The position numbers and the translations under genes were made by a program. This document shows, piece by piece, positions 3,498 to 42,639 of a stretch of 64,000 bases of DNA (the first letter of the stretch is position 1; the number at the start of each line of letters is the position of its first letter). Source of the DNA: an uncultured Gammaproteobacteria bacterium. GTDB taxonomy: Bacteria; Pseudomonadota; Gammaproteobacteria; Steroidobacterales; Steroidobacteraceae. Under the pieces are notes generated by a model that saw only the letters and a program-made list of their open reading frames with translations, did no database searches and was not told the DNA's origin. The DNA is taken from contig CAVPNV010000009.1 in NCBI GenBank assembly GCA_963706895.1, positions 116,056-180,055 of the forward strand. Direction: 5' to 3'.

Positions 3498-3504
3498 CCA
3501 CCTG

Positions 3505-4221
3505 TCAAAGCACCGGCTCATCCAGAGCTGCTCCAATCCTCTGCCGCGCAGAATCGCGCAGTTGCGTCGCGGTATCGCCGCCGCCCGTCCGGGCCGGCAG
3601 CGGCTCGAGCACCTCGACCTCGATGCGGCCCCAGCGCGGCAGGATGCTGCCTTCGCCTAGCACGTGGCGCGTGCCCCGGATCGCAATCGGCGCGACCGGC
3701 ACCCCTGCGCGTGCGGCCGCTGCAAAGGCACCGCCGTGGAAGCGGGCGAGGCCGGGCTCTGGGTTGAACGTGCCTTCGGGAAAAAACGCGATTGCCTGGC
3801 CCTGCTCAACCGAGCGCAGGATGCGCCGCGCGTCACCGCCGCCTTCGTGGCGATTGCGCCGTTCAACGAAGTGATGGCCGAGCCGCTTCAGCATGAAACC
3901 CGCGATTGGCAGCCGCGAAGCTTCCTTCTTGATCACGAACCCGAAGCGTGGCGGCAGGTACGAGAAGAGGAGTGGTCCGTCGAGATAGCTCGCGTGGTTC
4001 GCGACGATGATGCAGGTGGTGGAAGGCAACCGCTCGAGGCCCACGATGCGAACCGGCAGCCCGCCGAGCAGGAAAATGGCCCTGCCGAAGGCTCCCGCGG
4101 CTGCGCGGCGAGACTCCAGCCTCGGCAGGGCGAGGATCGGCAGAGTCACCAGCAGGAGGAGCGCAACGGCCAGCAACAGGACCCAGATCGCCCACAGCAA
4201 CCGGAGCGGATTCCACGTCAT
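3505..4221 (-). CDS. 1-acyl-sn-glycerol-3-phosphate acyltransferase family protein (PlsC-type), intact.
   Basis: 238-aa ORF with an N-terminal TM helix. Acyltransferase motifs IIVANHASYLDG (HX4D) and AFFPEGTF. Confidence 0.8.
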   Translation of the reverse strand: MTWNPLRLLWAIWVLLLAVALLLLVTLPILALPRLESRRAAAGAFGRAIFLLGGLPVRIVGLERLPSTTCIIVANHASYLDGPLLFSYLPPRFGFVIKKEASRLPIAGFMLKRLGHHFVERRNRHEGGGDARRILRSVEQGQAIAFFPEGTFNPEPGLARFHGGAFAAAARAGVPVAPIAIRGTRHVLGEGSILPRWGRIEVEVLEPLPARTGGGDTATQLRDSARQRIGAALDEPVL

Positions 4222-4400
4222 TGCGGACGGCTCCGAAGCGCGAACGGGTACTGTGAACTGGTTCCGGTTATGTTAATGGTCATGGGGGTCTGTGAGACCG
4301 GTCACGTTCGACCGCATCCGGGCCAAACCATACTGCGTCTGCATTCTGTCGCACCAGCCCGCCTTGCGCGATTCCGCGGCGGCGCGGCCGTCCGCGACGG

Positions 4401-5375
4401 TTGCAAGGCAGGTCCATGAGCGCAGCTATGAAGTCTTCGACATCGGTGCGTGCGGCGACACTCGCGACTGCAAGCGGGTCAGACGAAGCCGTCGAGCCGA
4501 TGATCGTGCGTTTTCTCGACGCGGTCTGGATGGAGCGCGGTCTCTCGCCGAATACGCTCGCCGCGTATCGCGCCGACCTGACCGCGCTGTCGCGCTGGCT
4601 GCGCCAGCGAGGCACCGTGCTCGAGCGCACGACGCGCAATGACCTCCTCGGATTCATCGCCTGGCGCGTGGAGACGGGTGCCCGCCCGCGTTCTACGGCA
4701 CGACAGCTCTCGAGCTTCCGCCGCTTCTTCCGGTATCTCGTTCGCGAGAGCGTGGTCAAGGAGGACCCGACCGCGCAGATCGCCATGCCGAAGATCGGCC
4801 GGTCGCTGCCGCGTTCGCTGACGGAGGCGCAGGTCGATTCGTTGCTGGCAGCGCCGCAGACGAGCGACCCGCTTGGCCATCGTGACCGGACGATGCTCGA
4901 AGTGCTGTACGCAACGGGACTGCGCGTCTCCGAGCTCGTGAGCCTCAGGCACAGCCAGGTCAACCTGAACCAGGGCGTGCTCCGCATCGTCGGCAAGGGC
5001 AATCGCGAGCGCCTGATCCCGCTCGGTGAAGAGGCCGTGCGCTGGCTGACGGAATTCATGCGCGGCGCACGAAGCGAGATCCTGCTCGACCGCCAGACCG
5101 ATCACCTGTTTCCGACGCGGCGCGGCGACCGGATGACGCGCCAGGCGTTCTGGCACATCATCAAGCGCTATGCGAAGAAGGGCGGCGTCGAAAAAGAGCT
5201 CTCCCCTCATACGCTGCGGCATGCCTTTGCGACCCATCTCCTGAACCATGGCGCGGACCTGCGCGTCGTGCAGATGCTCCTCGGCCATAGCGACCTGTCC
5301 ACGACGCAGATCTACACGCACGTGGCGCGGGAGCGCATGAAGGAACTCCACGCGCAGCACCACCCGCGCGGCTGA
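4401..5375 (+). CDS. xerD: Tyrosine site-specific recombinase XerD, intact. The start is uncertain; internal Met codons lie at 4416 and 4428.
   Basis: FLDAVWMERGLSPNTLAAYRADL N-terminal core-binding domain. Catalytic C-terminus LRHAFATHLL...LLGHSDLSTTQIYTHV. Followed by dsbC, as in many proteobacteria. Confidence 0.85.
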   Translation: MQGRSMSAAMKSSTSVRAATLATASGSDEAVEPMIVRFLDAVWMERGLSPNTLAAYRADLTALSRWLRQRGTVLERTTRNDLLGFIAWRVETGARPRSTARQLSSFRRFFRYLVRESVVKEDPTAQIAMPKIGRSLPRSLTEAQVDSLLAAPQTSDPLGHRDRTMLEVLYATGLRVSELVSLRHSQVNLNQGVLRIVGKGNRERLIPLGEEAVRWLTEFMRGARSEILLDRQTDHLFPTRRGDRMTRQAFWHIIKRYAKKGGVEKELSPHTLRHAFATHLLNHGADLRVVQMLLGHSDLSTTQIYTHVARERMKELHAQHHPRG

Positions 5376-5451
5376 TAAACTGCCGGCCTGGACCCGAACT
5401 GCGGCCCGGGCGTGGGGTCGAAGCAGGGTCGAACTCACCCGAGGGGCCCGC

Positions 5452-6198
5452 GTGCCGATGATCCGTAGCTTGCTCATTCCAGTCGCTGCCTCGCTTGCGC
5501 TTGCAGGCTCGGGCCAGGCCGCACCGCCGGCGGCGTCACCCGACGTTCGTGCCGAGATTGCGAAAAGGCTCGACATCAAGGTCGAGAACATCCGCCCGTC
5601 GCCGATCGCCGGGCTCTATGAAGTCAGTTCGGGAACCGAGATCGGCTATGTCTCAGCCGATGGCCGCTTCTACGTCGACGGCGACGTTTTCGACATGAGC
5701 TCAAAGCACAACCTGACCGAGGACAAGCGCAAGCAGGGACGGCTCACGCTACTCGCGGGCCTCAAGGACAGTGACGCGATCGTGTTCTCCCCGAAGGGCG
5801 CGGTCGAGCACACGGTCACCGTGTTCACCGACGTCGACTGCGTGTATTGCCGTCAGATGCACCAGGAAATCGACGAGCTCAATCGGCACGGGATCCGCGT
5901 CCGCTATCTGATGTTCCCGCGGGGCGGCCCCGACACCGAGTCCTGGGGCAAGGCCGAATCCGTGTGGTGCAGCGCCGACCGGAAGGATGCGCTGACACGC
6001 GCGAAGCGCGGCGAGAAGCTCGCGCCCGGCCGCTGCGAAACTCCAATCGCCGCCCAGTACGAGCTCGGTCGCCAGCTGGGAGTCAGCGGTACGCCCGGCA
6101 TCATTACGGAGACGGGCGAGTTCCTCGCAGGCTATGCGTCTGCAGCCTATCTCGCAGCCTATCTCGAGGAACCGGCGGCTACGGCCGCGACGAACTGA
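5452..6198 (+). CDS. dsbC: Periplasmic thiol:disulfide interchange protein DsbC, intact.
   Basis: Signal peptide LLIPVAASLALAGSGQA. Thioredoxin-fold CxxC in FTDVDCVYCRQMH. DsbC-like dimerisation N-terminus. GTPGIITETGEF near the C-terminus. Confidence 0.8.
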   Translation: MPMIRSLLIPVAASLALAGSGQAAPPAASPDVRAEIAKRLDIKVENIRPSPIAGLYEVSSGTEIGYVSADGRFYVDGDVFDMSSKHNLTEDKRKQGRLTLLAGLKDSDAIVFSPKGAVEHTVTVFTDVDCVYCRQMHQEIDELNRHGIRVRYLMFPRGGPDTESWGKAESVWCSADRKDALTRAKRGEKLAPGRCETPIAAQYELGRQLGVSGTPGIITETGEFLAGYASAAYLAAYLEEPAATAATN

Positions 6199-6201
6199 TA
6201 C

Positions 6202-6525
6202 TCACCGCTCGAGCAGCGGGAGCTTGTCCGGAACTTCCTTCCACGCGTCGGCATCGGCCGGCGGTTCCTTGCGCTGCGTGATGACTGGCCATTCCTTGGC
6301 GAGCTCCGCGTTGAGCGCCAGGAACTGTTCCTGCCCGGCGGGAACCTCCTCTTCCGAAAAAATCGCGTCGACCGGGCATTCCGGCTCGCAAAGCGTGCAG
6401 TCGATGCACTCCTCGGGGTCGATCACCAGGAAATTGGGTCCTTCGTGGAAACAATCCACGGGACAGACTTCCACGCAATCCATGTACTTGCACTTGATGC
6501 AGGTTTCGGTGACGACGAAGGTCAT
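6202..6525 (-). CDS. fdxA: 7Fe ferredoxin (FdxA type), intact.
   Basis: [29 protein letters not shown]...[16 protein letters not shown], the classic [3Fe-4S][4Fe-4S] ferredoxin cysteine pattern. I chose the start at MTFVV inside ORF 6202..6546. Confidence 0.9.
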
Positions 6526-6592
6526 GCGGCAGTTCCGGCGGCCCACCCGCTTTCGGAGCGGCGCATTGTGCCATAGCGCCGCCGATTCCCGG

Positions 6593-7121
6593 TCAGGCGA
6601 TCGTATGGAAGTGCAGGTTCGCGCGCCCGGCGGCGCGGTCCGCGAAATACCGGTGCAGCGTGTATTCGACGCTGGCGAAGGCGATTTCGGGCCAGGGAAT
6701 CTCCTGCTCGCCGCATAGCTTCGTTTCGAGGCTCTCGTGGCCGACGCCGAACGAGGGTTCTGCGAGCGTCGCGCGGAACATGACGTGCACCTGCTCTGCG
6801 TGCAGCACGTGCACGATCGCGCACAGGCTTCCTATCTCGACACGTGCAAGCGCTTCTTCGAGGCACTCGCGCGCCGCGGCCTGCTGCAGGGTCTCGCCCG
6901 TTTCCATGAACCCGGCCGGAATCGTCCAGTAGCCGCGCCGCGGCTCGATCGCGCGGCGGCAGATCAGGATCTGTCCGCCGTATTCCGGGACGCAACCAGT
7001 CACCACCTTGGGATTGCGGTAGTGGATCGCTCCGCAGGACGTGCAGACCGATCGCGGCAAGTGGTCGCCGTCGGGTGATGCGCAGCGTGACTGGCGCGGC
7101 GCAGGTCGGGCAGAACTTCAT
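6593..7121 (-). CDS. NUDIX hydrolase with an N-terminal zinc ribbon. One frame shift near 7077.
   Basis: Nudix box [21 protein letters not shown]. CxxC pairs [10 protein letters not shown] (frame of ORF 6522..7157) and [11 protein letters not shown] (ORF 6593..7060). Removing one base restores ...[18 protein letters not shown]. Confidence 0.75.
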
Positions 7122-7202
7122 CCGATCGATTGTCGTCGCGCGAGACAACGCTGCCAAGGGCGATTCGCGGGCGTCGGAGCGCCGTATACTCCTGCCCCTG
7201 CG

Positions 7203-7289
7203 GCCCGGATGGCGGAATTGGCAGACGCACCAGACTCAAAATCTGGTATCCGAAAGGATGTGTGGGTTCGACCCCCTCTCCGGGCACCA
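7203..7289 (+). tRNA. tRNA-Leu (anticodon CAA).
   Basis: Acceptor stem GCCCGGA/TCCGGGC followed by A and CCA. Anticodon stem-loop CCAGA-CTCAAAA-TCTGG. Long variable arm ATCC-GAAA-GGAT. T-loop TTCGACC, with one T.T mismatch in the T stem. Confidence 0.9.
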
Positions 7290-7343
7290 GCGATTTTCCT
7301 TCCAGCTGCGACCTTTTCGTGCGCCGGGGCATCTAAGCGATCG

Positions 7344-7928
7344 ATGTCCCGAATTTCCGAGATCGACCTGCCCGCCGCGCTTGTCGCGCGGGCGCGGACC
7401 GGCGAATCGGCAGCGCTGGAGGCGGTCTACACCGCGACATCGGGCGCCATCTACACGTTGCTGCGGCGGCTCGTGCGCCGCCCTGCAATCGCAGAAGAGC
7501 TGCTGCAGGAGACCTTTGTCGACGTGATCGAGCACATCGGCGCGTTCGAATCACGCTGCCCGTTGCCGGCCTGGATCCGCGCCATTGCCGTCAATCGCGC
7601 CCTCATGTACCTGCGCTCTCCCTGGCATCGCAGCCTGGAATGGCTCGACAAGGACCCGGGCGGCGCCGACCGCCTCCCGGCGTCCGGCTGCGATCCGGCC
7701 CCGCTCGACGCCGGTCTCGAAAAGGCGCTGATGACGCTGCCGGCCTTGTCCCGCGCCGTCGTCTGGCTGCACGACGTCGAGGGATTCACGCATGCCGACA
7801 TCGGGTTCGCTCTCGGGCGGACACCCAGTTTCTCGAAGTCCCAGCTTTCCCGTGCCCATCGGCGACTGCGCGAACTGATCGGCCCGGACGATATCCTTGC
7901 GGAGGGAACGCCATGCACTCCGACATGA
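7344..7928 (+). CDS. ECF-type RNA polymerase sigma-70 factor, intact.
   Basis: Start at MSRISEIDL inside ORF 7041..7928. Region 2 ELLQETFVDVIEHIGAF...WIRAIAVNRAL. Region 4 HTH VVWLHDVEGFTHADIGFALGRTPSFSKSQLSRAHRRLRE. Confidence 0.85.
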   Translation: MSRISEIDLPAALVARARTGESAALEAVYTATSGAIYTLLRRLVRRPAIAEELLQETFVDVIEHIGAFESRCPLPAWIRAIAVNRALMYLRSPWHRSLEWLDKDPGGADRLPASGCDPAPLDAGLEKALMTLPALSRAVVWLHDVEGFTHADIGFALGRTPSFSKSQLSRAHRRLRELIGPDDILAEGTPCTPT

Positions 7929-8422
7929 GCGAATGGGGCAGGCGTCTCGCGTCGCTCGCGGACTTCGAACCGCCGGCGCCGGGTTGGCGTGCGGTGGTCG
8001 AGGCGCGCGAGGCGCGCGAGGCCCGAATCGACAGGCGCCTGCCGCTCGCGCTTGCGGCAGCCGTGCTGGTCACGGCGACCGGCCTCGCGCTGGTGGCTGA
8101 ATTCGGCTCAACACGCGCTGACCGGCGACACGGACGCCCCGGCGCAGGTCGGCGTGCCCATCGCGGCCGAGGTACGCGCGGAGAACGAACGGCTCGAATC
8201 GATCCTCGCCGCCTTGCCCGAGCAGCACGCCATGCGGGGCAGCACGGCCTTCACCGTGGCGGAGCTCGAGGACCGGCTCGCCTCACTGGACGATCGCCTG
8301 AGCTGTCGTCACGCTCGAGCCGAACGCGCCCGAACGCGCCGATCGCCTGTGGCGGGAGCGCGTCGAGCGTGATGCATTCGCTGGTCCAGGTCCGCTATGC
8401 GGACGCGGCCGGCAACTATTGA
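7913..8422 (+). CDS. Putative single-pass anti-sigma factor (non-ZAS). About 2 frame shifts.
   Basis: The ATG overlaps the sigma-factor stop. MHSDMSEWGRRL... then TM helix LPLALAAAVLVTATGLALVA. The periplasmic part continues in the frame of ORF 7989..8372 (ENERLESILAALPEQHAMRG...ELEDRLASLDDRL) and returns to end ...VQVRYADAAGNY*. The call rests mainly on position and topology. Confidence 0.5.
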   Translation: MHSDMSEWGRRLASLADFEPPAPGWRAVVEAREAREARIDRRLPLALAAAVLVTATGLALVAEFGSTRADRRHGRPGAGRRAHRGRGTRGERTARIDPRRLARAARHAGQHGLHRGGARGPARLTGRSPELSSRSSRTRPNAPIACGGSASSVMHSLVQVRYADAAGNY

Positions 8423-8438
8423 TTCGATGGAGGTCACG

Positions 8439-9395
8439 ATGAATCGCTGGATGGTTGCAATTGTCGCGACGGCGGCATTCGCCGCAGTCTCGGCACCCGC
8501 TTTCTCGCAAGGCGACGACGAGGCATCGGCGGACAAGCGGCTGGCCGATGCACAGCGGCGCCTCGAGGACGCGGCGCGCGAAATCGCGGAGCTGAGTCGC
8601 GAGGCCGCGGGGCCCGGTGCATTCGGGGAATTCAATTACTTCATTCCGAATCCGCGCCGCGCGATGCTCGGCGTGAACCTCGGTGGCACCGTTCCAAACG
8701 GCGGTGGCGTGCGTGTCGAGGGCGTGAGCCCCGGCGGGCCCGCGGCCGAGGCGGGCGTGAAGTCGGGCGACGTGATCGTCGCGATCGAAGCGAAGCCGGT
8801 AACGACCGGACGTGAACTCGTTCGCGCGATGGAGGCCGTCGAGCCCGGTGACAAGGTCGAGCTCGACCTGAAGCGCGATGGAAAGCCGCTCAACGCTCTC
8901 CGTCGAGGCGCGGCCGCTTGACCGTGTGTTCCTCGCGCCTGCCGGCGCGGCGCCGGGCGTACGCGCCGCTCCCGCCGATGCCGCAACTCGCCGGGCTGCC
9001 CTTCGAAGTCGAGGGGCACTGGCTGCTCGAATCCTGGGGCGATGCCGAGTTCGTCACGCTGACGCCGGATCTCGGACGATACTTCGGCGCCGAGAAGGGC
9101 GTGCTCGTCGCGCGCGCGCCGGAGGACGCTGCACTGGGCCTCAAGGACGGCGACGTTATCGTCTCGATCGGCGGGCGGGAACCGCAGAATGGCCGTCACG
9201 CGATGCGCATCCTGCGCTCCTATCAGCCGGGAGAGGCGGTCGAGTTCAGGATCCTGCGCGACCGCCGCACGCAGACGCTTTCTGCGAAAATTCCGGAGCG
9301 TGCGGCCGCACGATGTCCTGCGCCGCTTGGCGCCGCCCCGGCCGCCGGCTCCGCCGGTTGCGCCGCCGCCAGGCGAGGACGCTGCCGCGACCTGA
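8439..9395 (+). CDS. Secreted tandem-PDZ protein with no protease domain. About 2-3 frame shifts; the 3' end is inferred.
   Basis: Signal peptide MNRWMVAIVATAAFAAVSAPAFS. PDZ 1 GVRVEGVSPGGPAAEAGVKSGDVIVAI. PDZ 2 GVLVARAPEDAALGLKDGDVIVSIGG (ORF 8918..9604). The Pro-rich tail and stop at 9395 lie in the frame of ORF 9189..9395. Confidence 0.6.
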
Positions 9396-9428
9396 CTGCG
9401 TCGGGCCCTGTGCTAGTCTGCGCGGCCC

Positions 9429-10483
9429 ATGCGCCGCGCCGACTTTTCCTATCCGCTCCCGCAAGATTTGATCGCCGACCGGCCGCTGCCGCACCGCGGC
9501 GCGAGCCGGCTGCTTGCCCTCGACGGATCGACCGGCGCCGATCAGCGACCTGGAATTCCACGACCTCCGGTCCCTGCTTCGGCCCGGCGACCTCATGGTG
9601 CTGAACGACACGCGAGTGCTGCCGGCGCGCCTGCATGGCCACAAGGAGAGTGGAGGGGCCTGCGAACTCTTGCTTGAGCGAATCCTGGACGGAAACCGGA
9701 TCCTCGCGCAGGCGCGCTCCAGCAAGGGCCTGCGGCCGGGGACGACGGTCACGCTTCCCGCAGGCGCGGTCGCGGTCGCGATCGCCCGCCATGGCGACCT
9801 GTGGGAGCTTGCGCTCGATCGCGACGCACTTCCGTACTTCGAGGAGCACGGCAGCATTCCCTTGCCGCCCTATGTGGCGCGCGCGGCGGATGACGACGGA
9901 CCGCGAGCGTTACCAGACTGTCTACGCGACGGAACCGGGTGCCGTTGCGGCGCCGACTGCCGGACTGCACTTCGATTGCGAGGCGCTCGCTGACCTCGCC
10001 CGCGCCGGAATCATCGATCGAACGGCTGACGCTTCATGTCGGTGCCGGCACCTTTACGCCCTTGCGCGCGGACGACATCGACGCAGCATCGGATGCATGC
10101 CGAGCGCATTCGACGTGCCGGCGGCCGTCGTGTCCGCCGTCGAGTCGGCACGGCGGCGCGGTGGGCGTGTCGTCGCGGTTGGCACGACAGTGGTGCGTGC
10201 CCTCGAAGCCGCCGCCGCCGGCGGCCGGCTCGAAGCCTGCGAAGGCGAGACGGACATCTTCATACGGCCGGGCCATCGATTCCGGGTCGTCGACGCGTTG
10301 CTCACGAACTTCCACTTGCCGGAATCGACGCTGCTGGTCCTGGTCGCCGCCTTCGCGGGGCGCGAGCACGTGTTGGCCGCTTATCATCATGCGATCGCCG
10401 GTCGTTACCGGTTCTTCAGCTACGGAGATGCGATGTTCGTGACGCCGGACCGTGCCGCGCTCGCGGATCGCGCGAACTCTCGC

Positions 10484-10487
<4 letters not shown>
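9429..10487 (+). CDS. queA: S-adenosylmethionine:tRNA ribosyltransferase-isomerase QueA. At least 4 frame shifts. The stop is inferred as a TGA overlapping the tgt ATG.
   Basis: Colinear pieces across three frames: [99 protein letters not shown]. Confidence 0.85.
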
Positions 10488-12216
<1,729 letters not shown>

Positions 12217-12227
<11 letters not shown>

Positions 12228-15200
12228 ACAGCCGGGCCTGATTGGCATACTGCACGAATGTCGGTCTGGCCAGGCGTCTTCCAGTACAGCTTGGCGACGG
12301 CGGTGCCGGCGTTGTCGTAGAACTCCATCGTGATCGGAGTAACGCTGGTTCTGCGTGAGCGCGATCGTGGCGCGTCACGTTCGTCGGTCGTGCCGTGTGA
12401 CTGGTCCAGTTGTCGATCACGAGCGCGCCGTTGATCCACAGGCGCACGCCGTCGTTGGAGCGCGTCTGGAAGCTGGAAGTTGCCGGTAGCGGTCGCTTCG
12501 ACAAGTCCGGTCCAGCGCGCCGAGAACTGGTTGCGCATTGACGCCGGTGCCCGGCGAGCCGGTCCAGCTTGAAGTTCACCGCTTCGATGCGCTGCGAGCA
12601 CATGCGCTGCCGGAAAGCGTCATGTTGTTGAAGTAGCGACCGGCGAGGCCGGTTCCGGTGCTCGGCGTCGCTGCCGCCGGGCGCGGTCGTCTCCTGGCTG
12701 CCGATCTGCGAGACGTATGCGACCAGGTTGGCGAGTTCCGCGGCAGTCACGGCTGACGCCGCTGTGTGCCTGGATGGCGTCGCCGAGCGTCGCCGCCGAG
12801 CCGCGGTGCAGGTAAGGTGCCGTCGCCCAGACGTCCCGCAACGTCGGGATGTCGATGCCCGTCAGCGGACCGCCGAGGCGATTGCCGCTGTCTGCGTTGA
12901 TCGTGCCGATGTCCTGCGGGTTGTTGCCGGCGCTCGTCGTGAAGGCGGTGCCACCGTGGCAGCTCGAGCAGTTCTTCGCGATGAAGACATTGCGACCGGC
13001 GCTGGCTGCGGCAGTCATCGAGCCGTCGGCGTTCCGCAGCGGGCTCGGCGAAAATGCCGTCGAGCGACTTCACGTAGGCGGCAAGCGCGTCGAGGTCCGG
13101 CGCTCACGCCGGCTTTCGGGTCGCCCAGCGGCTGGCTGCGCGTGCCGGTATTGAACTGGGCGTTGGTCATGAGGCCGTTGCCGCCGGCAAGGGTCCGGAT
13201 CTGCCCTTCGAAGTCCTGGACTTCGTCGAAGTTGTTGCGTCCAGTGCAGGAATCCCTGGCCGCCTGCACGGCCGTTCAGGTTCGCGGTGTTGCGCAGCCC
13301 CTCGCCGAAGCCCGTCAGGTCCCACACGCGGCCGTCCTGACCGCCATCGTTGTGGCAGGAGGCGCAGCTGAGGTAGGCGTCGCGAGCGAGCCGCGTGTCG
13401 ACGGCGTCATAGAAGAGCCGCTTGCCCTGCAGCACAGTGGCGCTCAGCTTCTCGGAAGCGAGTGTCGCCGCGTTGGTGATGAGCGGCAGGCCCGCGATGC
13501 CTTCGGTCTGGAGCTGCGTCGAGGTCGAACACGCCGACCGTGCGCTCCATGAAATTGTTGACGTACAAGCGGTCGCCGCTGGCCGAGACGCGCGAGGCCC
13601 TGCGGTGCGCGACCGACGTTGATGCGGACCGACCTGGAAGCCGGCGTGCGCGTCGATGACCGCCACCTGGCGGCTCGTCTCGAGCGCAACGAACATGTAG
13701 ACGCCGAGCCGGTCGAACGCGATCGCGCTCGCGACGCCGGAATTGTCGTGATCGATGCGCCGCGGGTAATCCTCGGAGCCCGCGTCGAGATCGACACGGG
13801 AGCTGATGGCCCGGACGGTGTTCTGGAAGTTGAGCGGCTGATCCATCGCGGCGCATGCCGCGCTTGACGTTGTCCTGCTTCGACGGAACCCAGGCCGAGC
13901 GTCCGTCCGGCGAGATCGCCACGGCGCCCAGGTAGTTTGGAATGCCGCGGCCCTGATTCTCGAAATCCGGCTTGTCGCTGTGGCGCAGCACGATGGTCTG
14001 CAACACGCGCAAGGCCGGCGCCGTCGACGACCACGATTTCGCCGCCAGCATGCTGTCCGCCCGGCTGGGTCTGCACGACGGCCGTGCTCTCGCCCGGCAG
14101 TGGCGGCGTGACGAAACGCGACACGTAGAGCCGGCTGCCGTCACCCGACATCGAGAGGTGGCGGACATTGGGCCCGACATTGATGCTGGCGAGCGTATTC
14201 CCGGTCGCGACGTCGATCTTGAGGACGCGGCCGGTGCCTTCCAGCGCGACGAACATCGCATTGCCCGTGGGCGCCGCGATGATGCCGTACGGCTGCGAGG
14301 CGAACGGCAGGCCGATCGTGCGGCTCACCGCGAGGGTCGTCGGGTTGATCACGCTGATCGACGCCGCACCCTTGTTGGTGACCCAGATCTCGCCGTTCGG
14401 GGCGACGGCAACGGAGCGCGGCGCCGTGCCGACGGTGATGATCGCAAGCCTCGCGTTGGTGCTTGCGTTGAAGACGCTGACCGACTTCTGGTCCTGGTTG
14501 ACGACCCAGAAGCGGTCGACGCCTGCTCGCGCGATCCTCGAAGACGATGTTGCCGGAAATCGCCGGCCGGTTCGGCGTGAGCGGCAGGTGAATTGCCTGC
14601 ACGATGGTCCTCGAATCGATCGCTCCGCCCGCGTCCCGCACATGGACAGTCACGTAGTAGATGCCCGGCTGCGCGAACTGGTGCGTGATCGTCCCCGACG
14701 AGGAGAACGACGTGAGCGGCGTGCCGTCGTCAAAATCCCACTGGTACTGGACGCCGACGCCACCCGTGACGCTCGCCTCGAACGTGACGGTTGAGCCTGC
14801 GACCGCAGGCGGCGGGGGCGGAGGGGTGTTCAGCACGAATGGCGGACCAGCGGCGATGCTCCAGGTAAAGCTCTCGCTGTCGCTGTTGACGCCGTCGCTC
14901 GCAGTCGCGATGACATTGAACGTGCCCGAGGCCGTCGGTGTGCCGCTGATCGCGCCCGTCGAAGGGTTGACAGACACTCCGGAGGGCAGGCCGCTGGCGC
15001 TGAAAATCAGGGTATCGCCATTGGGATCCGTGGCGGACAGCTGCACGATGGCGGCTGTTCCTGCCTGGCCGGACTGGCTTCCGGGATTGGCGAGGTTCGG
15101 TGTGATCGCCGGATTGGGGTTTGCAGCGACTCCCACCTTGGCGATCTTCGCGATCGACGGCGTGCCGGCCGCATTGAGGACGAACAGCAGGTAGTAGCCG

Positions 15201-16593
15201 GGAGGCGCATCGCCGGCCCTGGTCGGCGCCTGGATGTTCAATTGGCCGCCGTTCTGCTGGAAGGTCAGCTCGATGAAGCGCTGCTCGGTGTTCCAGCTGT
15301 GCGAAACCGACGCCGTCTTGATCATTGCGACGCGGCTGATCGCGCCGGTCCCCGCAATGTCGATGCCGAAAGTCTCGCCGATGTCGATCGTTCCCGGTGC
15401 GGTTTCGATGACTGGACGCGTGGCGAACCCGCCGGCGGCGTTGTAAAGGTACGGCGGGTAGTAGATCTCCATGTTGGTGTTGTTCTGCGGCCCGGGCGCG
15501 CCGCCGCCGGCGACCAGGACGCTCGCGTCCGGCATCAGCACGGCCGTCGAGTGGTAGAGGCGCGCCTTCGCCTGCGGCGGGCCGAGCAGCCACTGGCCGG
15601 TCGTCGGGTTCCAGATTTCGGCGTTGTAATTGACGCCGGTCATCTCGTTCCAGACCGTGCTGCCGCCGGTCGCGAGGACCCGGCCGTCGGCGAGCACGGT
15701 CGCCGTGACGAGCCTGCGCTGCGACGAGAGTGAGCCGGTGTTCGTGACGACCGGCGTGCCGCTCGTGATGTCGATCACGCGCGCGGTGCTCGCGTTGCCG
15801 CCGAACTGCAGGATGCGGCCCGGCCGGAACATCGCGGCGCTGGAATCGGATCCCGTGGGGCCGGTGAACTGGCTGGCCAATCGTCAGCGGAGCCTGATGC
15901 CGCTGGTGTCGACGTAGTACATCCGCCCGTCGCTGTCGAAGCCGAACACGCGGCCGTCCGGCGCGACGAAGTTGCGCGGGAACATGAAATCAAGGCCGCT
16001 CGTGTTCGCGCCGGTCAGGAGCCGGAACGCGCCATTGACGCCGCGAACTTCCGGCCGGTCCGTGCCGCCGGAGCCGCCCTGGATGTAGATCTCGCCATTC
16101 GGCAGCGCGATGGACGAGGAGTACCAGCGCGCCCGGTTCATGTTGTTGTTGTCGGATCAGCGTGTTGTTCGTGTAGTTGAACAGTGTTGCTGTTGTTGTT
16201 GCCGGTGTTCGTCGTGCCGGTGCCGGTCCAGTTGTCGCCGCCGGCGATGAATACCTGGTTGCCCTGCGGCACCACGACCTGCGAGCTGCAGAAGATGTCC
16301 GTGCCCGTGTTGTTGGGCAGCGTCGGTGGCCTGCATCGAGGCCGGCCGACGGATCCCAGACGTCGTAGATGAAGATCGCGGTCTGCTGGCCCGATGCCGT
16401 CGTGCCGTAGCTCAGCACGCGCCCGTCCGGCATCAGCACGGCGTGCACCGCGATGAGCGGCCAGGAATGGACCGGTGGACCAGGCGCCGACAGTGTTGTT
16501 TGCGGCAGCGGGGACGGTGGTCGCCAGAAGGGCGGCAGAAAGCGAAACTTGAATCAAAACTTTACGAATGCACCGAACTGCGCTGCTGCGCAC
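12217..16593 (-). CDS. Secreted multidomain protein of about 1450 aa: copper radical oxidase (galactose/glyoxal oxidase type, with a DUF1929-like Ig domain) + Ig-like + PKD + YVTN-type beta-propeller + di-haem cytochrome c peroxidase/MauG-like + PA14. At least 12 frame shifts.
   Basis: GTG start at 16593 with GAGGGG upstream and signal peptide RSSAVRCIRKVLIQVSLSAALLATTVPAAA. Oxidase: DIFCSSQVVVPQGNQVFIAGGD, ARWYSSSIALPNGEIYIQGG, RLYHSTAVLMPDASVLVAGGG, ASVSHSWNTEQRF, PPGYYLLFVLNAAGTPS. PKD: QYQWDFDDGTP...GIYYVTVHVRD. Propeller: FWVVNQDQKSVSVFNAS. Haems: LSCASCHNDGGQDGRVWD and NCSSCHGG...TAPYLHRGSAATL. PA14: NDGVRLWINGALVIDNW, ITMEFYDNAGTAVAKLYWKTPG. Confidence 0.75.
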
Positions 16594-16878
16594 TAACCAT
16601 CCCCTCGATCGTTCTTCGTTTCGAATCGCGCGGCACACGGGCTGCCGGCGTCCTTTGTGCCGCGAGAATATCGCGCACGCCGGATGCGCATTACGCAAGT
16701 TGACATAATGGCCACCCGCGCCCGTAGAATTGTGACGCAGCTATCAACCGGCGCGAAGAGGCCCAGTCGGCCGGCCATGGCGCGCCGCGCAAGCCGCGGC
16801 GGCAGGTCGCGACGGAGCCTGTGCCATAATCGCGCGCCCCAAACGGGCCGGCCCTGCCGGCCCCCTCAGAGGAAGGAC

Positions 16879-17209
16879 ATGGACCTTTTGATCACGCCCG
16901 CCTGGGCCCAGGCCGCCACAGGATCAACGGGCAGCACGCTCACGACCATCCTGCCGCTCCTGCTTATTTTCGTCGTCTTCTATTTCCTGCTCATCCGGCC
17001 GCAGACAAAGCGCGCCAAGGAGCACCGTGAGATGGTCGCCAAGCTGGCCACCGGCGACGAAGTCGTGACGAACGGCGGCGTGCTGGGGCGAATCAGCGAG
17101 GTCGGCGAGCAGCTTCGTCACGCTCCAGGTTTCCTCCGGCGTCGCGATCCAGGTGCAGAAGTTCCAGATCGCGCAATTGATGCCCAAGGGCACGTTCAAG
17201 GGCGCCTGA
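16879..17209 (+). CDS. yajC: Preprotein translocase subunit YajC. One frame shift near 17113.
   Basis: MDLLITPAWA...ILPLLLIFVVFYFLLIRPQTKRAKEHREMVAKLATGDEVVTNGGVLGRISEVGEQ. Removing one base gives FVTLQVSSGVAIQVQKFQIAQLMPKGTFKGA*. Immediately upstream of secD. Confidence 0.85.
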
Positions 17210-17228
17210 GCGCCCACCCAGGCCAGAC

Positions 17229-19076
17229 GTGCAGCGATATCCCCTCTGGAAGGGCGCCTTGCTGGCGGCCCTGATGGTCGCAGCGATCCTGTTCGCCCTG
17301 CCGAACTGGTACGGCGAATCGCCGGCACTGCAGCTTTCGCGCCGCGATCGCGGCGCCTTCGATTCTGCTGCCGCGACGGCTGTCGGCGACGCGTTGAAAG
17401 AGGCCGGGATCCCGGTCGCGGAAGTCTATGTCGACGGTGACAACCGCCTCTGGGCGCGATTTGCGAAAGTCGACGACCAGCTCCGGGCGCGCGACCTCAT
17501 CCAGCGTCAGTTCGAAGGACAGTACGCAATCGCGCTCACGAATGCCTCGCGCGCGCCGGACTGGCTGAACTCGCTCGGGCTCGAGCCCATGAGCCTCGGT
17601 CTCGACCTGCGCGGCGGCATGCTGCTTGTCTACGAGGTGGACACCGAAGGTGCAGTCGCCCAGCTCCTGCAACGGTTGGAGCGCGATTTCCGGAAGGTAC
17701 TCCGTGACGCCCGCATTCCCTACCAGGAGGTCGAGGTGTCCGGGAATTCCGTGCGCGTGACGCTGCGCGAACCGGCGCAAACAGATGCGGCGCGCAAGGC
17801 GCTCCTCGACTACGACCCGCAGCTGACCCTCGCGCCCGAAACGACCCCGGGTACGCTGATCGCGACCCTGACCGAGGCGGCCGTCAAAGATCGCCAGGCG
17901 TTCGCCATACAGCAGAACATCACGGCGCTCGAGAATCGCGTGAACGCGCTCGGCGTGGCGGAAACTGTCGTGCAGCGGCAGGGCCAGAATCGCATCGCGG
18001 TGCAGGTGCCCGGCGTGCAGGACGCCTCCGAGGTCGTGCGGCTCCTCGGCAAGGTGGCGACGCTCGAGTTCCGGCTCGTCGACCCGGTCAACAGTCCGCT
18101 GGAGGCCGCGCGCACCGGCCGGGCACCCCTCGGGACGAAGCTGTTCAAGCAGCGCGACGGCTCGCCGGTGCTGCTGAAGCGGGACGTCATCGCGACCGGC
18201 GAACAGCTGATCGATGCATCCTTCGCACCTTCGCAGGGCGAGCCTTCCGTGAGCGTCAAGCTCGACAGCCGCGGCGGTGACGAGATGCTCCGGACGACGC
18301 GCGAGAACCTGAACAGGCCGATGGCAGTCGTCTTCATCGAAAAGGAGCGCGAGCTCGTCCAGCGCGATGGACAGGAAGTTGCCGTCGACCGGTCGAAGGA
18401 GGAAGTCATCAGCGTCGCGACGATCCGCGGCGTGTTCTCGAACAACTTCCAGATCACCGGGCTCTCTGCGGCGGAGGGTACCGAGCTCGCCAAGCTTCTG
18501 CGCGCGGGCGCGCTGGCGGCGCCGATCATCATCGTCGAGCAGCGCGTGATCGGTCCGAGCGTCGGCGAGGACAACATCAGGGACGGAACGCGGGCACTCG
18601 CCATCGCAGGCGTCTTCCTGTTCGCCTTCATGATCCTCTACTACAAGGTGTTCGGGTTGATCGCCGACATCGTGCTGCTGACCAACGTGATCATCATCAT
18701 CGCCGTCCTGGGCATGTTCGACGCTGCGCTCACGCTGCCGGGTATCGCGGGCATCGTGCTGACGGTCGGTACGGCGGTCGATGCGAACATCCTGATCTAC
18801 GAGCGGATACGCGAGGAAATCGCGGTGGGCGCCTCGCCCTGGGCCGCGATCAACGCCGGATTCGACAAGGCGTTCTCCGCAATCGCGGACTCCAACGTCA
18901 CCATGCTGATGGCCGGTGGCGTGCTGTTCCTGTTTGGCTCCGGTCCCGTGCGCGGCTTCGCGGTGACGCTGTGCATCGGCATCGTGGCCTCGATGTTCAC
19001 GGCGCTGGTCGGCAGCCGGGCGTTGATCTACCTGGCCTACGGGCGTCGCCGCCGCATCGAGCGGCTGGCGATCTGA
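17229..19076 (+). CDS. secD: Protein translocase subunit SecD, intact.
   Basis: Uninterrupted 615-aa ORF. N-terminal TM, large periplasmic domain, C-terminal 5-TM SecD/F block (VIGPSVGEDNIRDG...IAGIVLTVGTAVDANILIYERIREE). Confidence 0.95.
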   Translation: MQRYPLWKGALLAALMVAAILFALPNWYGESPALQLSRRDRGAFDSAAATAVGDALKEAGIPVAEVYVDGDNRLWARFAKVDDQLRARDLIQRQFEGQYAIALTNASRAPDWLNSLGLEPMSLGLDLRGGMLLVYEVDTEGAVAQLLQRLERDFRKVLRDARIPYQEVEVSGNSVRVTLREPAQTDAARKALLDYDPQLTLAPETTPGTLIATLTEAAVKDRQAFAIQQNITALENRVNALGVAETVVQRQGQNRIAVQVPGVQDASEVVRLLGKVATLEFRLVDPVNSPLEAARTGRAPLGTKLFKQRDGSPVLLKRDVIATGEQLIDASFAPSQGEPSVSVKLDSRGGDEMLRTTRENLNRPMAVVFIEKERELVQRDGQEVAVDRSKEEVISVATIRGVFSNNFQITGLSAAEGTELAKLLRAGALAAPIIIVEQRVIGPSVGEDNIRDGTRALAIAGVFLFAFMILYYKVFGLIADIVLLTNVIIIIAVLGMFDAALTLPGIAGIVLTVGTAVDANILIYERIREEIAVGASPWAAINAGFDKAFSAIADSNVTMLMAGGVLFLFGSGPVRGFAVTLCIGIVASMFTALVGSRALIYLAYGRRRRIERLAI

Positions 19077-19083
19077 GGGCCCG

Positions 19084-20017
19084 ATGGAATTCCTCAAGCA
19101 CGTCCCCTCGATCCGCTTCATGGCGCTCCGGCGCTACTGGTACGTCCTGTCGGCGCTCGTCGTGCTCGCATCGATCGTGCTCGTGATGGTGCGCGGCCTC
19201 AACCTGACCGTCGACTTCACCGGCGGACTGGTATTCGAACTCGGGTTTTCGCAGCCGGTCGATCTGGAGCGCGTGCGCTCGGCACTGCGCGACGGCGGCG
19301 TCGAGGACTTCCAGGTCCGGACCTACGGAACGGCGAGCGAGCTCGAGGTGCGCCTGCCTCCCGCGGAAACCGGGAGCCGCCGCGGACGATGCGGACCGCG
19401 TTGTCAAGGCACTCGCGACGATCGACCCGGCGGTGAAGCTCAACCGGACCGAATCGGTGGGGCCGCAGGTCAGTCAGCAGCTCGGCGAGCAGGCGGCGCT
19501 TGCCGTGCTGATGACACTGCTCCTCGTCCTGGTCTACATCGCGCTGCGCTTCCGCTGGAGATTCGGCGTCGGCTCGCTGGTGGCGTCGCTTCATGACCCG
19601 ATCGTCGCAGTCGGGGCCATCGCGCTGCTCGGCATCCCGTTCGACCTCAACGTGGTCGCGGCGCTGCTGACGATCCTCGGTTACTCAGTCAACGACACCG
19701 TCGTGATCTTCGACCGTATCCGCGAGCGATTCAGGACGATGCGCAAGGCGGCGCCGGCGGAAGTGATCGACCGCGCCATCAACGAAACGCTTGGCCGAAC
19801 GATCATCGTCTCGGGCTGTGCGCTGTCCTCGGTGATCTTCCTCGCCGTGCTCGGCGGCGAGACGCTTCGCGGGTTCGCGGTCGCGCTGGCGATCGGCATC
19901 GTGATCGGCACCTACTCGTCGGTCTACGTCGCGGGCGCCATCGCGCTCGACCTCGGCGCATCGGCCCGGGACTTCATGCCGCCGGAGAAGCGCGGCGAAG
20001 TCGACGAGCTGCCCTGA
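19084..20017 (+). CDS. secF: Protein translocase subunit SecF. One frame shift near 19380-19430.
   Basis: ORF 19084..19596 (FMALRRYWYVLSALVVLASI...GLNLTVDFTGG) joins ORF 19433..20017 (ESVGPQVSQQLGEQA...LGYSVNDTVVIFDRIRE). Confidence 0.9.
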
Positions 20018-20038
20018 GGACTGATTGATGGAGCGCCC

Positions 20039-20802
20039 GTGATCGAGCTGCTTTCCGATCCCGCAGTCTGGGTCTCGTTCCTGACGCTGGCCCTCCTCGA
20101 GATCGTGCTCGGCATCGACAACATCATCTTCCTGTCGATCCTGGTCTCGAGGCTTCCAGCGGAACTTCAGCAACGCGGCCGCGTTCTTGGCCTCGCGTTC
20201 GCGATGGTCACGCGCATCGGCCTGCTGTTTTCGATTACCTGGCTGACCCGGCTCACGGCCCCGCTGTTCGCGGTCTTCGGGGAGGAAATTTCCGGGCGCG
20301 ACCTCATCCTGTTCGCCGGCGGCCTGTTCCTCCTGGTCAAGAGCGTCAACGAGATCCACGGCGCGCTCGAGGGCGCGGAATCTCACGGCACGAACGTCAA
20401 GCTGCGGTCGAACATCCTTGCCGTCGTCATCCAGATCGGCCTGATCGACATCGTGTTCTCGCTCGACTCGGTCTTTACGGCCGTCGGACTCGCAGAGCAC
20501 GTCGAGATCATGGTCGCGGCGATCGTCGTGGCAGTGCTGGTCATGATGTTCCTCGCGCGGCCGCTCAATGAGTTCATCGACCGGCATCCGACCATCAAGA
20601 TGCTGGCGCTCTCGTTCCTGATCCTCATCGGCCTCGCGCTGGTCGGCGAATCCCTGGAATTCCACATTCCGAGGGGCTACCTCTACTTCGCGATGGCGTT
20701 CTCGGTCGGAGTCGAGATGATCAACATCCGCCTGCGCAAGCGCGGGCAGCCGGTCGACCTGCGCGGCCCCGAATTCCCGCGCGAGAAACCGACAAGCGTT
20801 GA
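20039..20802 (+). CDS. TerC-family integral membrane protein. The true 3' end is uncertain; as given, the ORF reads on to 21109.
   Basis: LLEIVLGIDNIIFLSILV and multiple TM helices up to YLYFAMAFSVGVEMINIRLRKRG. The remaining ~100 codons are Arg/Ala-rich and antisense to the permease 3' end. A TGA at 20800-20802 becomes in-frame after a one-base shift. Confidence 0.65.

Positions 20803-39888: not shown

Positions 39889-39984
<96 letters not shown>

Positions 39985-42524: not shown

Positions 42525-42639
<115 letters not shown>

Follow-up and report, generated by a model that had tools for sequence, protein, structure and literature searches.

The question raised by a 64,000-nucleotide stretch of a Steroidobacteraceae genome assembly from an uncultured gammaproteobacterium (GCA_963706895.1, contig CAVPNV010000009.1, positions 116,056 to 180,055; hereafter the window) is whether the many overlapping open reading frame (ORF) fragments, lying in all three frames of its minus strand between 12217 and 16698, are the remnants of a decaying gene or the pieces of an intact one, and, if the latter, what kind of protein they would compose. 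The analysis presented here indicates that they derive from a single gene, whose predicted secreted product joins an AA5-type copper radical oxidase to a seven-bladed propeller and a di-haem c module closest to the beta and gamma subunits of hydrazine synthase. This gene is not unique to the window, being a representative of a large unstudied family that is widespread in soil bacteria and extends over several phyla.

A 1443-residue sequence stitched by hand from the fragments was used as the first homologue query and recovered more than 120 intact proteins, each some 1445 residues long, that have an identical set of Pfam domains. The best intact ortholog, P0001 (1448 aa, 87% amino-acid identity), is encoded on a metagenome contig of 141 kb (L001), which shows synteny and collinearity with the window and has the order secF-secD-yajC, large gene, SCO1 and tgt-queA-PDZ protease, and the two align with 86% nucleotide identity across 17.3 kb. 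Alignments with this contig and with a second, independent reference, a Steroidobacteraceae metagenome-assembled genome (MAG; L002) showing 90% amino-acid identity, placed 29-31 indels of a length not divisible by three within 12217-16593, almost all of them single-base insertions in the window, and the same 29 insertion positions were recovered with either reference. Upon deletion of these insertions the gene reads as a single frame of 1448 codons with zero stops. The ratio of nonsynonymous to synonymous substitution rates (dN/dS) between the window and L001 is 0.135 for the large gene and 0.10-0.22 for its single domains, as compared to 0.128 for tgt and 0.076 for secD; the large gene is thus under purifying selection. 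Given that the insertion-only pattern spans housekeeping genes and that the coding substitutions are conserved, the frameshifts result from assembly errors across some 10 kb and not from gene decay. That the large gene is a truly decaying pseudogene with biological frameshifts is, in spite of some 30 frame-breaking indels in 4.4 kb and an indel density above that of some neighbors (secD, xerD and dsbC being without any), extremely improbable, since the indels are nearly exclusively +1, the same kind is found in queA (6), tgt, yajC, the PDZ protease gene and SCO1, no stop codon is left once the insertions are removed, and the dN/dS of 0.135 is on par with that of tgt. Programmed frameshifting was rejected as well, because the same window insertions are seen against two references and because of the dN/dS value.

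A first-pass annotation, made from the letters of the window alone, had already joined twelve or more of these ORF fragments into one secreted polypeptide of about 1450 codons. The listed fragments do exist, with signals for Glyoxal_oxid_N, GO-like_E_set, He_PIG, PKD, NHL/YVTN, CCP_MauG, RoxA-like_Cyt-c and PA14, and the corrected frame occupies exactly the coordinates that it had given, with neither stops nor separate starts between the oxidase and the propeller/peroxidase parts. Its number of joins was too low, the alignments to the two references indicating about 30 frameshifts, and ORF 11879..12601, of which it had included the upper part, is a chimeric frame that passes from the PA14 tail into a separate, overlapping SCO1 gene downstream. 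The motifs that it quoted (DIFCSS, ARWYSSS, RLYHST, SVSHSWNTEQR, LSCASCHNDGG, KNCSSCHGG and IPTLRDVWATAPYLHRGSA) are present, and its Ig/PKD, beta-propeller and PA14 domains were recovered by Pfam profiles on the corrected protein.

The domain order of the corrected protein, as given by these profiles, is signal peptide, kelch propeller plus E-set, He_PIG, PKD, YVTN propeller, di-haem module and PA14 (Table 1). The N-terminus is conserved in P0001, P0009 and P0012, and the predicted signal peptide is of the Sec type and lacks a twin-arginine motif, which fits periplasmic attachment of c-type haem. Throughout the family the PKD domain is nearly always immediately N-terminal to the YVTN propeller. 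The C-terminal PA14 domain scores 89.8 bits against a Pfam gathering score of 24 and matches the PA14 domain of RsgI3 in PDB with an E-value of 7e-42.

The N-terminal half is an AA5-type copper radical oxidase by its fold and by five diagnostic residues, and is predicted to possess oxidase activity. Its residues 32-485 align with galactose oxidases in PDB (E-values of 1e-35 to 1e-48), the Fusarium enzyme matching across the whole catalytic part with an E-value of ~1e-35 and 9G8H/9G43 being better at 1e-47; in Pfam the Glyoxal_oxid_N domain scores 42.3 bits (cut-off 37.5) and the GO-like_E_set domain 76.6 bits. As the first-pass annotation had proposed, each of the five catalytic positions has its equivalent in Fusarium galactose oxidase, with Cys228, Tyr272, Tyr495, His496 and His581 of the latter corresponding in the PDB alignment to C102, Y157, Y345, H346 and H430. 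These residues are invariant among 19 close homologs, and in diverse representatives from more than 100 clusters at 50% identity those of the oxidase domain are retained in 104-106 of 106 sequences and His430 in 119 of 120. In 90 of the 106 a tryptophan, Trp156 (~16124-16126), immediately precedes the cross-link tyrosine (RWYSSS). The equivalog model for GlxA in NCBIfam scores 139 bits against a cut-off of 800, and the oxidase is nearer to the galactose and alcohol oxidases than to GlxA.

In the C-terminal half, alignment with the cytochrome c peroxidase (CCP) of Pseudomonas aeruginosa (1EB7) identifies the first CxxCH motif as C1073/C1076/H1077 and the second as C1204/C1207/H1208, while the bridging Trp94 corresponds to W1114 and the calcium-site Asn79 to N1098, which is Asn in 142 of 150 family members. 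Both CxxCH motifs and W1114 are retained in all 150 members. For the functional roles of the aligned residues we presume what is established for CCP and MauG. The position of the distal His71 is occupied by T1090 (Thr or Ser in the family), so that a distal His is absent, and the position of the ligand Met275 is occupied by His1272 in 149 of 150 members; H1258 is also essentially invariant across the family representatives. The second haem is therefore probably bis-His, as in haem II of hydrazine synthase gamma, and the alignment supports neither the His/Met ligation of CCP nor the His/Tyr ligation of MauG. The copper ligands and the CxxCH sites thus survive error correction and are near-invariant family-wide, and both metal centers are under strong purifying selection across a family that spans multiple phyla.

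The Pfam CCP_MauG score is 26.8 bits against a cut-off of 25.6, and in PDB the haem module is matched best by hydrazine synthase gamma (5c2v_C, E 3e-15), with bacterial CCPs next and MauG also behind; the matches to MauG and MbnH (6e1c, E 1e-8; TIGR04039) are weak. An NCBIfam scan of the corrected protein gave zero models above cut-off. Its below-cut-off matches were hydrazine_gamma, hydrazine_beta and their beta-gamma fusion (33-55 bits against cut-offs of 560-1250), the fusion model crossing the domain junction at residues 985-1212 with 55 bits against 1250. An AlphaFold2 (AF2) model from 10 close sequences had a good propeller and a haem domain with a mean confidence (pLDDT) of ~30; residues 664-1302 modelled with 52 diverse sequences reached a pLDDT of 88.8 and a predicted template-modelling score (pTM) of 0.92, with the propeller above a pLDDT of 90. 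In Foldseek searches the top PDB fold match was hydrazine synthase beta (5C2V_B, E 3e-18, TM 0.77), with other seven-bladed propellers close behind. Propellers dominate the matches listed, and fold neighbors of the haem domain were not seen among the top 50, so that the placement of the haem module derives from sequence comparison. The cassette of propeller and di-haem module is thus closest to hydrazine synthase beta and gamma and not to the classical CCP or MauG, and it is a distant homolog of hydrazine synthase beta-gamma, not a member of that family. The two c-type haem sites of the first-pass annotation accordingly hold, and their context is nearer to hydrazine synthase gamma than to the CCP/MauG type that it had named. 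A recent study describes distant homologs of the fused beta-gamma subunit as 'highly prevalent in environmental bacteria', with a Trp, as in CCP and MauG, at the position of gamma His144 in the non-anammox homologs, and gives haem gamma-II of hydrazine synthase as bis-His (PMC12758564, 2025). These traits all appear to match the present module; a copper oxidase partner is nowhere mentioned in that study.

When 1.84 billion cluster representatives were searched with a profile built on the cassette, 3522 proteins were recovered at E <1e-30. The oxidase and its E-set are N-terminal to the PKD-propeller-di-haem region in at least 118 of the 149 closest representatives at 50% identity, the others being mostly N-terminally truncated fragments. 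The oxidase and the cassette are hence nearly always fused in this family, and a permuted member, P0241 (2552 aa), carries the propeller and di-haem module first and the oxidase plus E-set at its C-terminus. In collections with one genome per species at least 539 loci have relatives, of which the best 80 are full-length genes from Steroidobacteraceae and Burkholderiales, cultured strains included. Searches with a distant member as query find the same core in Leucothrix, Caldilineaceae, Blastocatellia and other Acidobacteria, Nitrospira and Verrucomicrobia, with the relatives from these distant groups bearing only generic names in their annotation. Member lengths range from 680 to 3064 residues, and the numbers of He_PIG and PA14 spacers are variable. 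The accessory domains vary as well, comprising NPCBM, F5/8 type C, NedA-like galactose-binding, ricin B, legume lectin and PA14; they are mostly carbohydrate-binding modules, suggesting that the proteins are targeted to glycans. Cultured carriers include Steroidobacter agaridevorans SA29-B, Piscinibacter defluvii SH-1, Rhizobacter sp. Root404, Ideonella lacteola, Rivibacter subsaxonicus and Leucothrix pacifica.

Several further variants were observed. In P0004 of Rivibacter subsaxonicus (2362 aa) the oxidase is followed by two Ig-PKD-propeller-di-haem-PA14 blocks that are identical in the stretches compared by eye, the result of a very recent tandem duplication or else of faulty assembly. L050, L051 and L057-L059, as well as L025, L033 and L041-L046, are natural length variants, some genes of this kind stopping straight after the di-haem module, without PA14, and the Burkholderiales versions have a C-terminus longer by 150-200 residues. 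Paralog pairs are seen in gammaproteobacterial genomes (L002/L012 in the MAG DAIQBB01, L010/L072 and L022/L066); in each, SCO1 adjoins only one copy, the other being more divergent.

The gene immediately downstream encodes a copper chaperone of the SCO1/SenC family. It too is frameshifted in the window, and its corrected sequence retains HCPNVCP and MHST, i.e. the CPNVCP motif and the His; on L001 the intact SCO1 ortholog and the end of the large gene share 11 nt. Such an overlapping SCO1 is a trait of the gammaproteobacterial branch of the family. As counted from a tblastn table, SCO1 is directly downstream in 32 of 81 related loci, and in 16 of these 32 the neighbors are otherwise unrelated.

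Copper radical oxidases generate H2O2 in turnover and drift into an inactive non-radical state, from which peroxidases rescue them in vitro. In the light of this, we favor, with a probability of roughly one half, a reading by analogy in which the protein would be a glycan-docked oxidase whose own di-haem module consumes its H2O2 and reactivates its copper-tyrosine center, with SCO1 supplying the metal. After export the Ccm system would attach both haems, and SCO1 would hand copper to the oxidase, whereupon the Tyr-Cys cofactor would form. PA14, or the discoidin, NPCBM, ricin or legume-lectin domains of the relatives, would anchor the enzyme on a glycan or cell-surface polymer, on which the copper site would oxidize a primary alcohol (or an aldehyde), reducing O2 to H2O2. 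The tethered di-haem module might then capture the H2O2 at its open, five-coordinate N-terminal haem and pass oxidizing equivalents via the conserved Trp and the bis-His second haem, by which the inactive Cu(II)-tyrosine form would be re-oxidized to the active Cu(II)-tyrosyl radical. A second substrate could possibly be oxidized as well, and the haem module would also prevent the build-up of damaging H2O2.

Two unfused systems provide precedents. In Streptomyces lividans the radical copper oxidase GlxA operates with the DyP-type haem peroxidase DtpA and the copper chaperone Sco (PMC4736821), and in fungi a peroxidase one-electron-oxidizes the alcohol oxidase (AlcOx) with which it is paired to the Cu(II)-radical form (PMC9770985). 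From these precedents and the adjacent SCO1 we infer that a producer of H2O2 is here tethered to a user of it. The Streptomyces triad, in which a secreted copper radical oxidase, a haem peroxidase using its H2O2 and a copper-supplying Sco chaperone act together in a glycan-related, extracellular setting, would resemble the present system, with SCO1 adjoining the large gene here. It differs in consisting of three separate proteins, as against an oxidase and haem partner in one chain, in the b-type DyP fold of DtpA, as against a di-haem c module of the CCP/MauG fold with putative peroxidase activity, and in its Tat export, as against Sec plus Ccm; a cslA-type glycan synthase neighbor, moreover, is not present at the syntenic locus L001. 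The tandem Perox-AlcOx pairs of Colletotrichum and Magnaporthe share with it the genetic pairing of an AA5 oxidase with a dedicated haem partner, which in the fungi activates the oxidase (PMC9770985). They are eukaryotic, separately secreted from head-to-head genes and equipped with a class II peroxidase, and act on cuticular fatty alcohols, whereas the family described here is bacterial and has its oxidase covalently joined to a di-haem c module and to lectin-type domains.

Several observations weigh against such a coupling. The copper and haem centers are separated by four domains, namely the E-set, He_PIG, PKD and the propeller. The complete 681-residue lipoprotein P0180 (L082, 8001-10046) consists of a stand-alone propeller and di-haem module; the genes around it encode a xanthine-dehydrogenase-type molybdoenzyme, a protocatechuate dioxygenase and a GMC oxidoreductase. 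A copper oxidase partner was not found in this neighborhood, implying that a copper radical oxidase is not required for the cassette to function. In loci of the Burkholderiales type an adjoining SCO1 is absent and there is no other conserved neighbor. On the oxidase side, the galactose oxidase loop GGSW290SGG aligns with GGS--GG, the stacking Trp290 being deleted. This position is variable in glyoxal and alcohol oxidases too, so that its loss excludes a strict galactose oxidase type and not the superfamily, and Trp156 may stand in for it in this family, as a stacking or second-shell residue. In the haem pocket the distal pair Gln104/Glu114 of the P. aeruginosa CCP is missing, and an invariant family motif, NNFDEVQDFEGQIR (D1123, E1125, Q1127 and R1129), is found instead. 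The gamma subunit of hydrazine synthase, for its part, has been proposed to reduce NO to hydroxylamine and not to handle H2O2 (PMC12758564). With the distal pair replaced and the nearest solved relative possibly NO-reducing, peroxidase chemistry of the haem module is not assured; no biochemically characterized member of the family was found in PDB, NCBIfam or the open-access literature. Caution regarding the mechanism is therefore advised, chiefly because the haem pocket is atypical, four domains intervene between the centers and the cassette also occurs by itself.

The same evidence can be read in other ways. One is that the di-haem domain acts only once, consuming O2 or H2O2 in order to build or finish a protein-derived cofactor of the oxidase (the Tyr-Cys link or some other modified residue), as MauG does on pre-methylamine dehydrogenase or MbnH on MbnP, and plays no role in steady-state turnover. 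Membership of the CCP/MauG superfamily, the weak MauG and MbnH matches and the MauG-like combination of an inter-haem Trp with an open first haem are compatible with this, as is the need of GlxA maturation for a haem peroxidase under copper scarcity (PMC4736821). We nevertheless consider it unlikely, as the position of the MauG Tyr ligand is occupied by His and a permanent 600-residue fusion in hundreds of lineages would be costly for a single-use step. Moreover, the Tyr-Cys link of galactose oxidase forms autocatalytically with copper and O2.

A comparably small chance is accorded to the haems being a conduit to periplasmic redox partners, either bringing in electrons from small cytochromes to reduce H2O2 to water or leading substrate electrons away, so that the copper enzyme would act as a dehydrogenase and not as an oxidase. 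The probable bis-His second haem, typical of electron transfer and matching haem gamma-II, would suit such a role; classical bacterial CCPs are protective enzymes that reduce H2O2 with electrons from small cytochromes, and in cellobiose dehydrogenase a cytochrome domain is fused to an oxidoreductase. Against this, no cytochrome or cupredoxin partner gene is conserved beside the large gene in the loci compared, we know of no copper radical oxidase with an acceptor other than O2, and the lectin-type domains suggest an extracellular or surface site far from respiratory carriers.

It is also conceivable, at rather long odds, that the cassette is a channelling unit like that of hydrazine synthase, by which the H2O2 is kept within the protein and guided to the first haem, to serve there as co-substrate when the bound polysaccharide is oxidized a second time, or cleaved, in the manner of a peroxygenase. 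If true, this would constitute a natural single-chain oxidase-peroxygenase cascade acting on glycans, as a hitherto unrecognized, widespread bacterial counterpart to the H2O2-driven lytic polysaccharide monooxygenase (LPMO) systems.

Finally, the two halves might be uncoupled catalysts merely co-localized on the same polymer, the cassette acting on a small N or O species such as NO or hydroxylamine in the manner of hydrazine synthase beta-gamma, or as a RoxA-like oxygenase. The best solved relatives are indeed hydrazine synthase beta by fold and gamma by sequence, the fusion model spans the junction, fused beta-gamma homologs are prevalent in environmental bacteria (PMC12758564), and both the stand-alone P0180 and the RoxA-like_Cyt-c match in Pfam agree with such a view. 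It is quite improbable all the same, because the closest relatives, the permuted member included, almost invariably have the cassette fused to the oxidase, which argues for functional coupling, because a Trp is present where hydrazine synthase gamma has His144, and because the genes called at the syntenic locus L001 include none for a hydrazine synthase alpha-like protein.

With respect to its surroundings, the large gene, together with SCO1, occupies the interval between tgt and yajC, on the strand opposite to these. The two genes thereby split a queA-tgt-yajC-secD-secF cluster that is contiguous in many gammaproteobacteria. This placement (window 9400-20000) is kept in the closest Steroidobacteraceae-type relatives (L001-L010, L014, L019, L022, L069 and L075). 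Promoter and terminator scans of the two flanking intergenic regions found none. ORF 11879..12601 is a chimera with PA14 pieces, in and out of frame, upstream and the N-terminal half of SCO1 downstream. The error-rich part of the window extends over 7000-17300, with ~5 single-base insertions per kb relative to the two intact relatives, breaking the nudix gene, the ORF of ~168 codons, the PDZ protease gene, queA, tgt, SCO1, the large gene and yajC; homopolymer extensions are in the minority among the inserted bases, and the flanks at 3500-7000 and 17230-20800 are nearly free of insertions. The window also carries tRNA-Leu(CAA) at 7203-7289, tRNA-Ser(CGA) at 39889-39980 and a small signal recognition particle (SRP) RNA at 42534-42630, all of them ordinary.

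Table 1. The large gene, the parts of its corrected product and neighboring genes of the window (residues refer to the 1448-residue protein)
Feature	Coordinates	Strand	Basis or remark
Whole gene	12217..16593	-	GTG start 16593, TAG stop 12217-12219; 1448 codons; ~30 frame-breaking indels in assembly
Predicted Sec-type signal peptide, residues 1-31	16501..16593	-	...LLATTVPAAA/NN, read from sequence
Copper radical oxidase, seven-bladed kelch propeller, residues 32-390	15419..16500	-	Pfam Glyoxal_oxid_N/Kelch; PDB galactose oxidases
Oxidase residue Cys102	16288-16290	-	
Oxidase residue Tyr157	16121-16123	-	
Oxidase residues Tyr345-His346	15551-15556	-	
GO-like E-set, residues 391-485	15134..15418	-	Pfam PF09118, E 2e-21
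His430, fourth copper ligand, from E-set	15299-15301	-	Aligned to galactose oxidase His581
He_PIG Ig-like domain, residues 497-578	14855..15100	-	Pfam PF05345, E 2e-14
PKD domain, residues 588-662	14603..14827	-	Pfam PF00801, E 1e-17
Seven-bladed YVTN-type beta-propeller, residues ~680-1025	13508..14551	-	Pfam NHL/YNCE/Vgb_lyase; AF2; 5c2v_B
Di-haem c module, CCP/MauG superfamily, residues ~1040-1298	12685..13465	-	Pfam CCP_MauG, Cytochrom_C, RoxA-like_Cyt-c
CxxCH 1	13352-13366	-	Di-haem module
Bridging Trp1114	13241-13243	-	Di-haem module
CxxCH 2	12956-12970	-	Di-haem module
His1272, probable sixth ligand	12764-12766	-	Di-haem module
C-terminal PA14, residues 1306-1448	12220..12662	-	Pfam PF07691, E 2e-25
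SCO1/SenC copper-chaperone gene, ~200 codons	11627..12230	-	Pfam SCO1-SenC, E 7e-15; start overlaps large-gene stop; 8 non-multiple-of-3 indels vs L001
queA			6 non-multiple-of-3 indels vs L001
tgt			6 non-multiple-of-3 indels vs L001
PDZ protease gene			3 non-multiple-of-3 indels vs L001
Small ORF (~168 codons) between sigma factor and PDZ protease genes			3 non-multiple-of-3 indels
yajC, secF, nudix			1 non-multiple-of-3 indel each vs L001
secD, xerD, dsbC, ferredoxin, sigma factor			0 non-multiple-of-3 indels vs L001

The individual parts of this protein belong to known superfamilies, and comparison with their characterized members brings out what is particular to the family. With Fusarium galactose 6-oxidase and the AA5_2 enzymes (1GOF, 2EIE; 9G8H; 5C86) it shares the kelch plus E-set fold and the five copper/radical residues, and the F5/8 type C domain, the kind that forms domain 1 of galactose oxidase, also occurs in some relatives; it differs from them in the deletion of Trp290, the Trp before the cross-link Tyr and ~950 extra residues that include the haem cassette. 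With hydrazine synthase beta/gamma, which are fused in Ca. Scalindua (5C2V), it shares a seven-bladed propeller followed by a di-haem domain in which, as suggested by the alignment, the first haem is open and the second is bis-His; it differs in having a Trp for His144, in the lack of alpha, in the aerobic soil bacteria that carry it and in the fused copper oxidase. With CCP and MauG (1EB7, 1IQC, 3L4M) the module shares two CxxCH motifs, the bridging Trp, the calcium-site Asn and the PTLR...PY.H.G motif; unlike in these, His takes the place of the Met (CCP) or Tyr (MauG) ligand, there is no distal Gln/Glu and no distal His switch, and the module is fused to a propeller. Thus, while the logic of oxidase, peroxidase and Sco is known in unfused form, for its covalent version with a hydrazine-synthase-beta-gamma-like cassette no characterized example was found in PDB, NCBIfam or the open-access literature. 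The first-pass annotation had likewise named none. The architecture itself proved to be common, with at least 539 loci in the species-representative genomes.

In conclusion, the partnership of an oxidase with a haem peroxidase appears in this family to be hard-wired in one polypeptide, with swappable lectin-type domains and, in one branch, a copper chaperone. Since cultured carriers exist, the question of coupling is directly testable. A single characterized member would test whether re-activation of the radical by a tethered haem is the physiological answer to oxidase inactivation, would identify glycan substrates of bacterial copper radical oxidases, and would provide a function for the environmental 'hydrazine-synthase-beta-gamma-like' proteins. 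Copper radical oxidases are valued biocatalysts whose laboratory use needs added peroxidase and catalase, and the family might give self-activating oxidases for biocatalysis.

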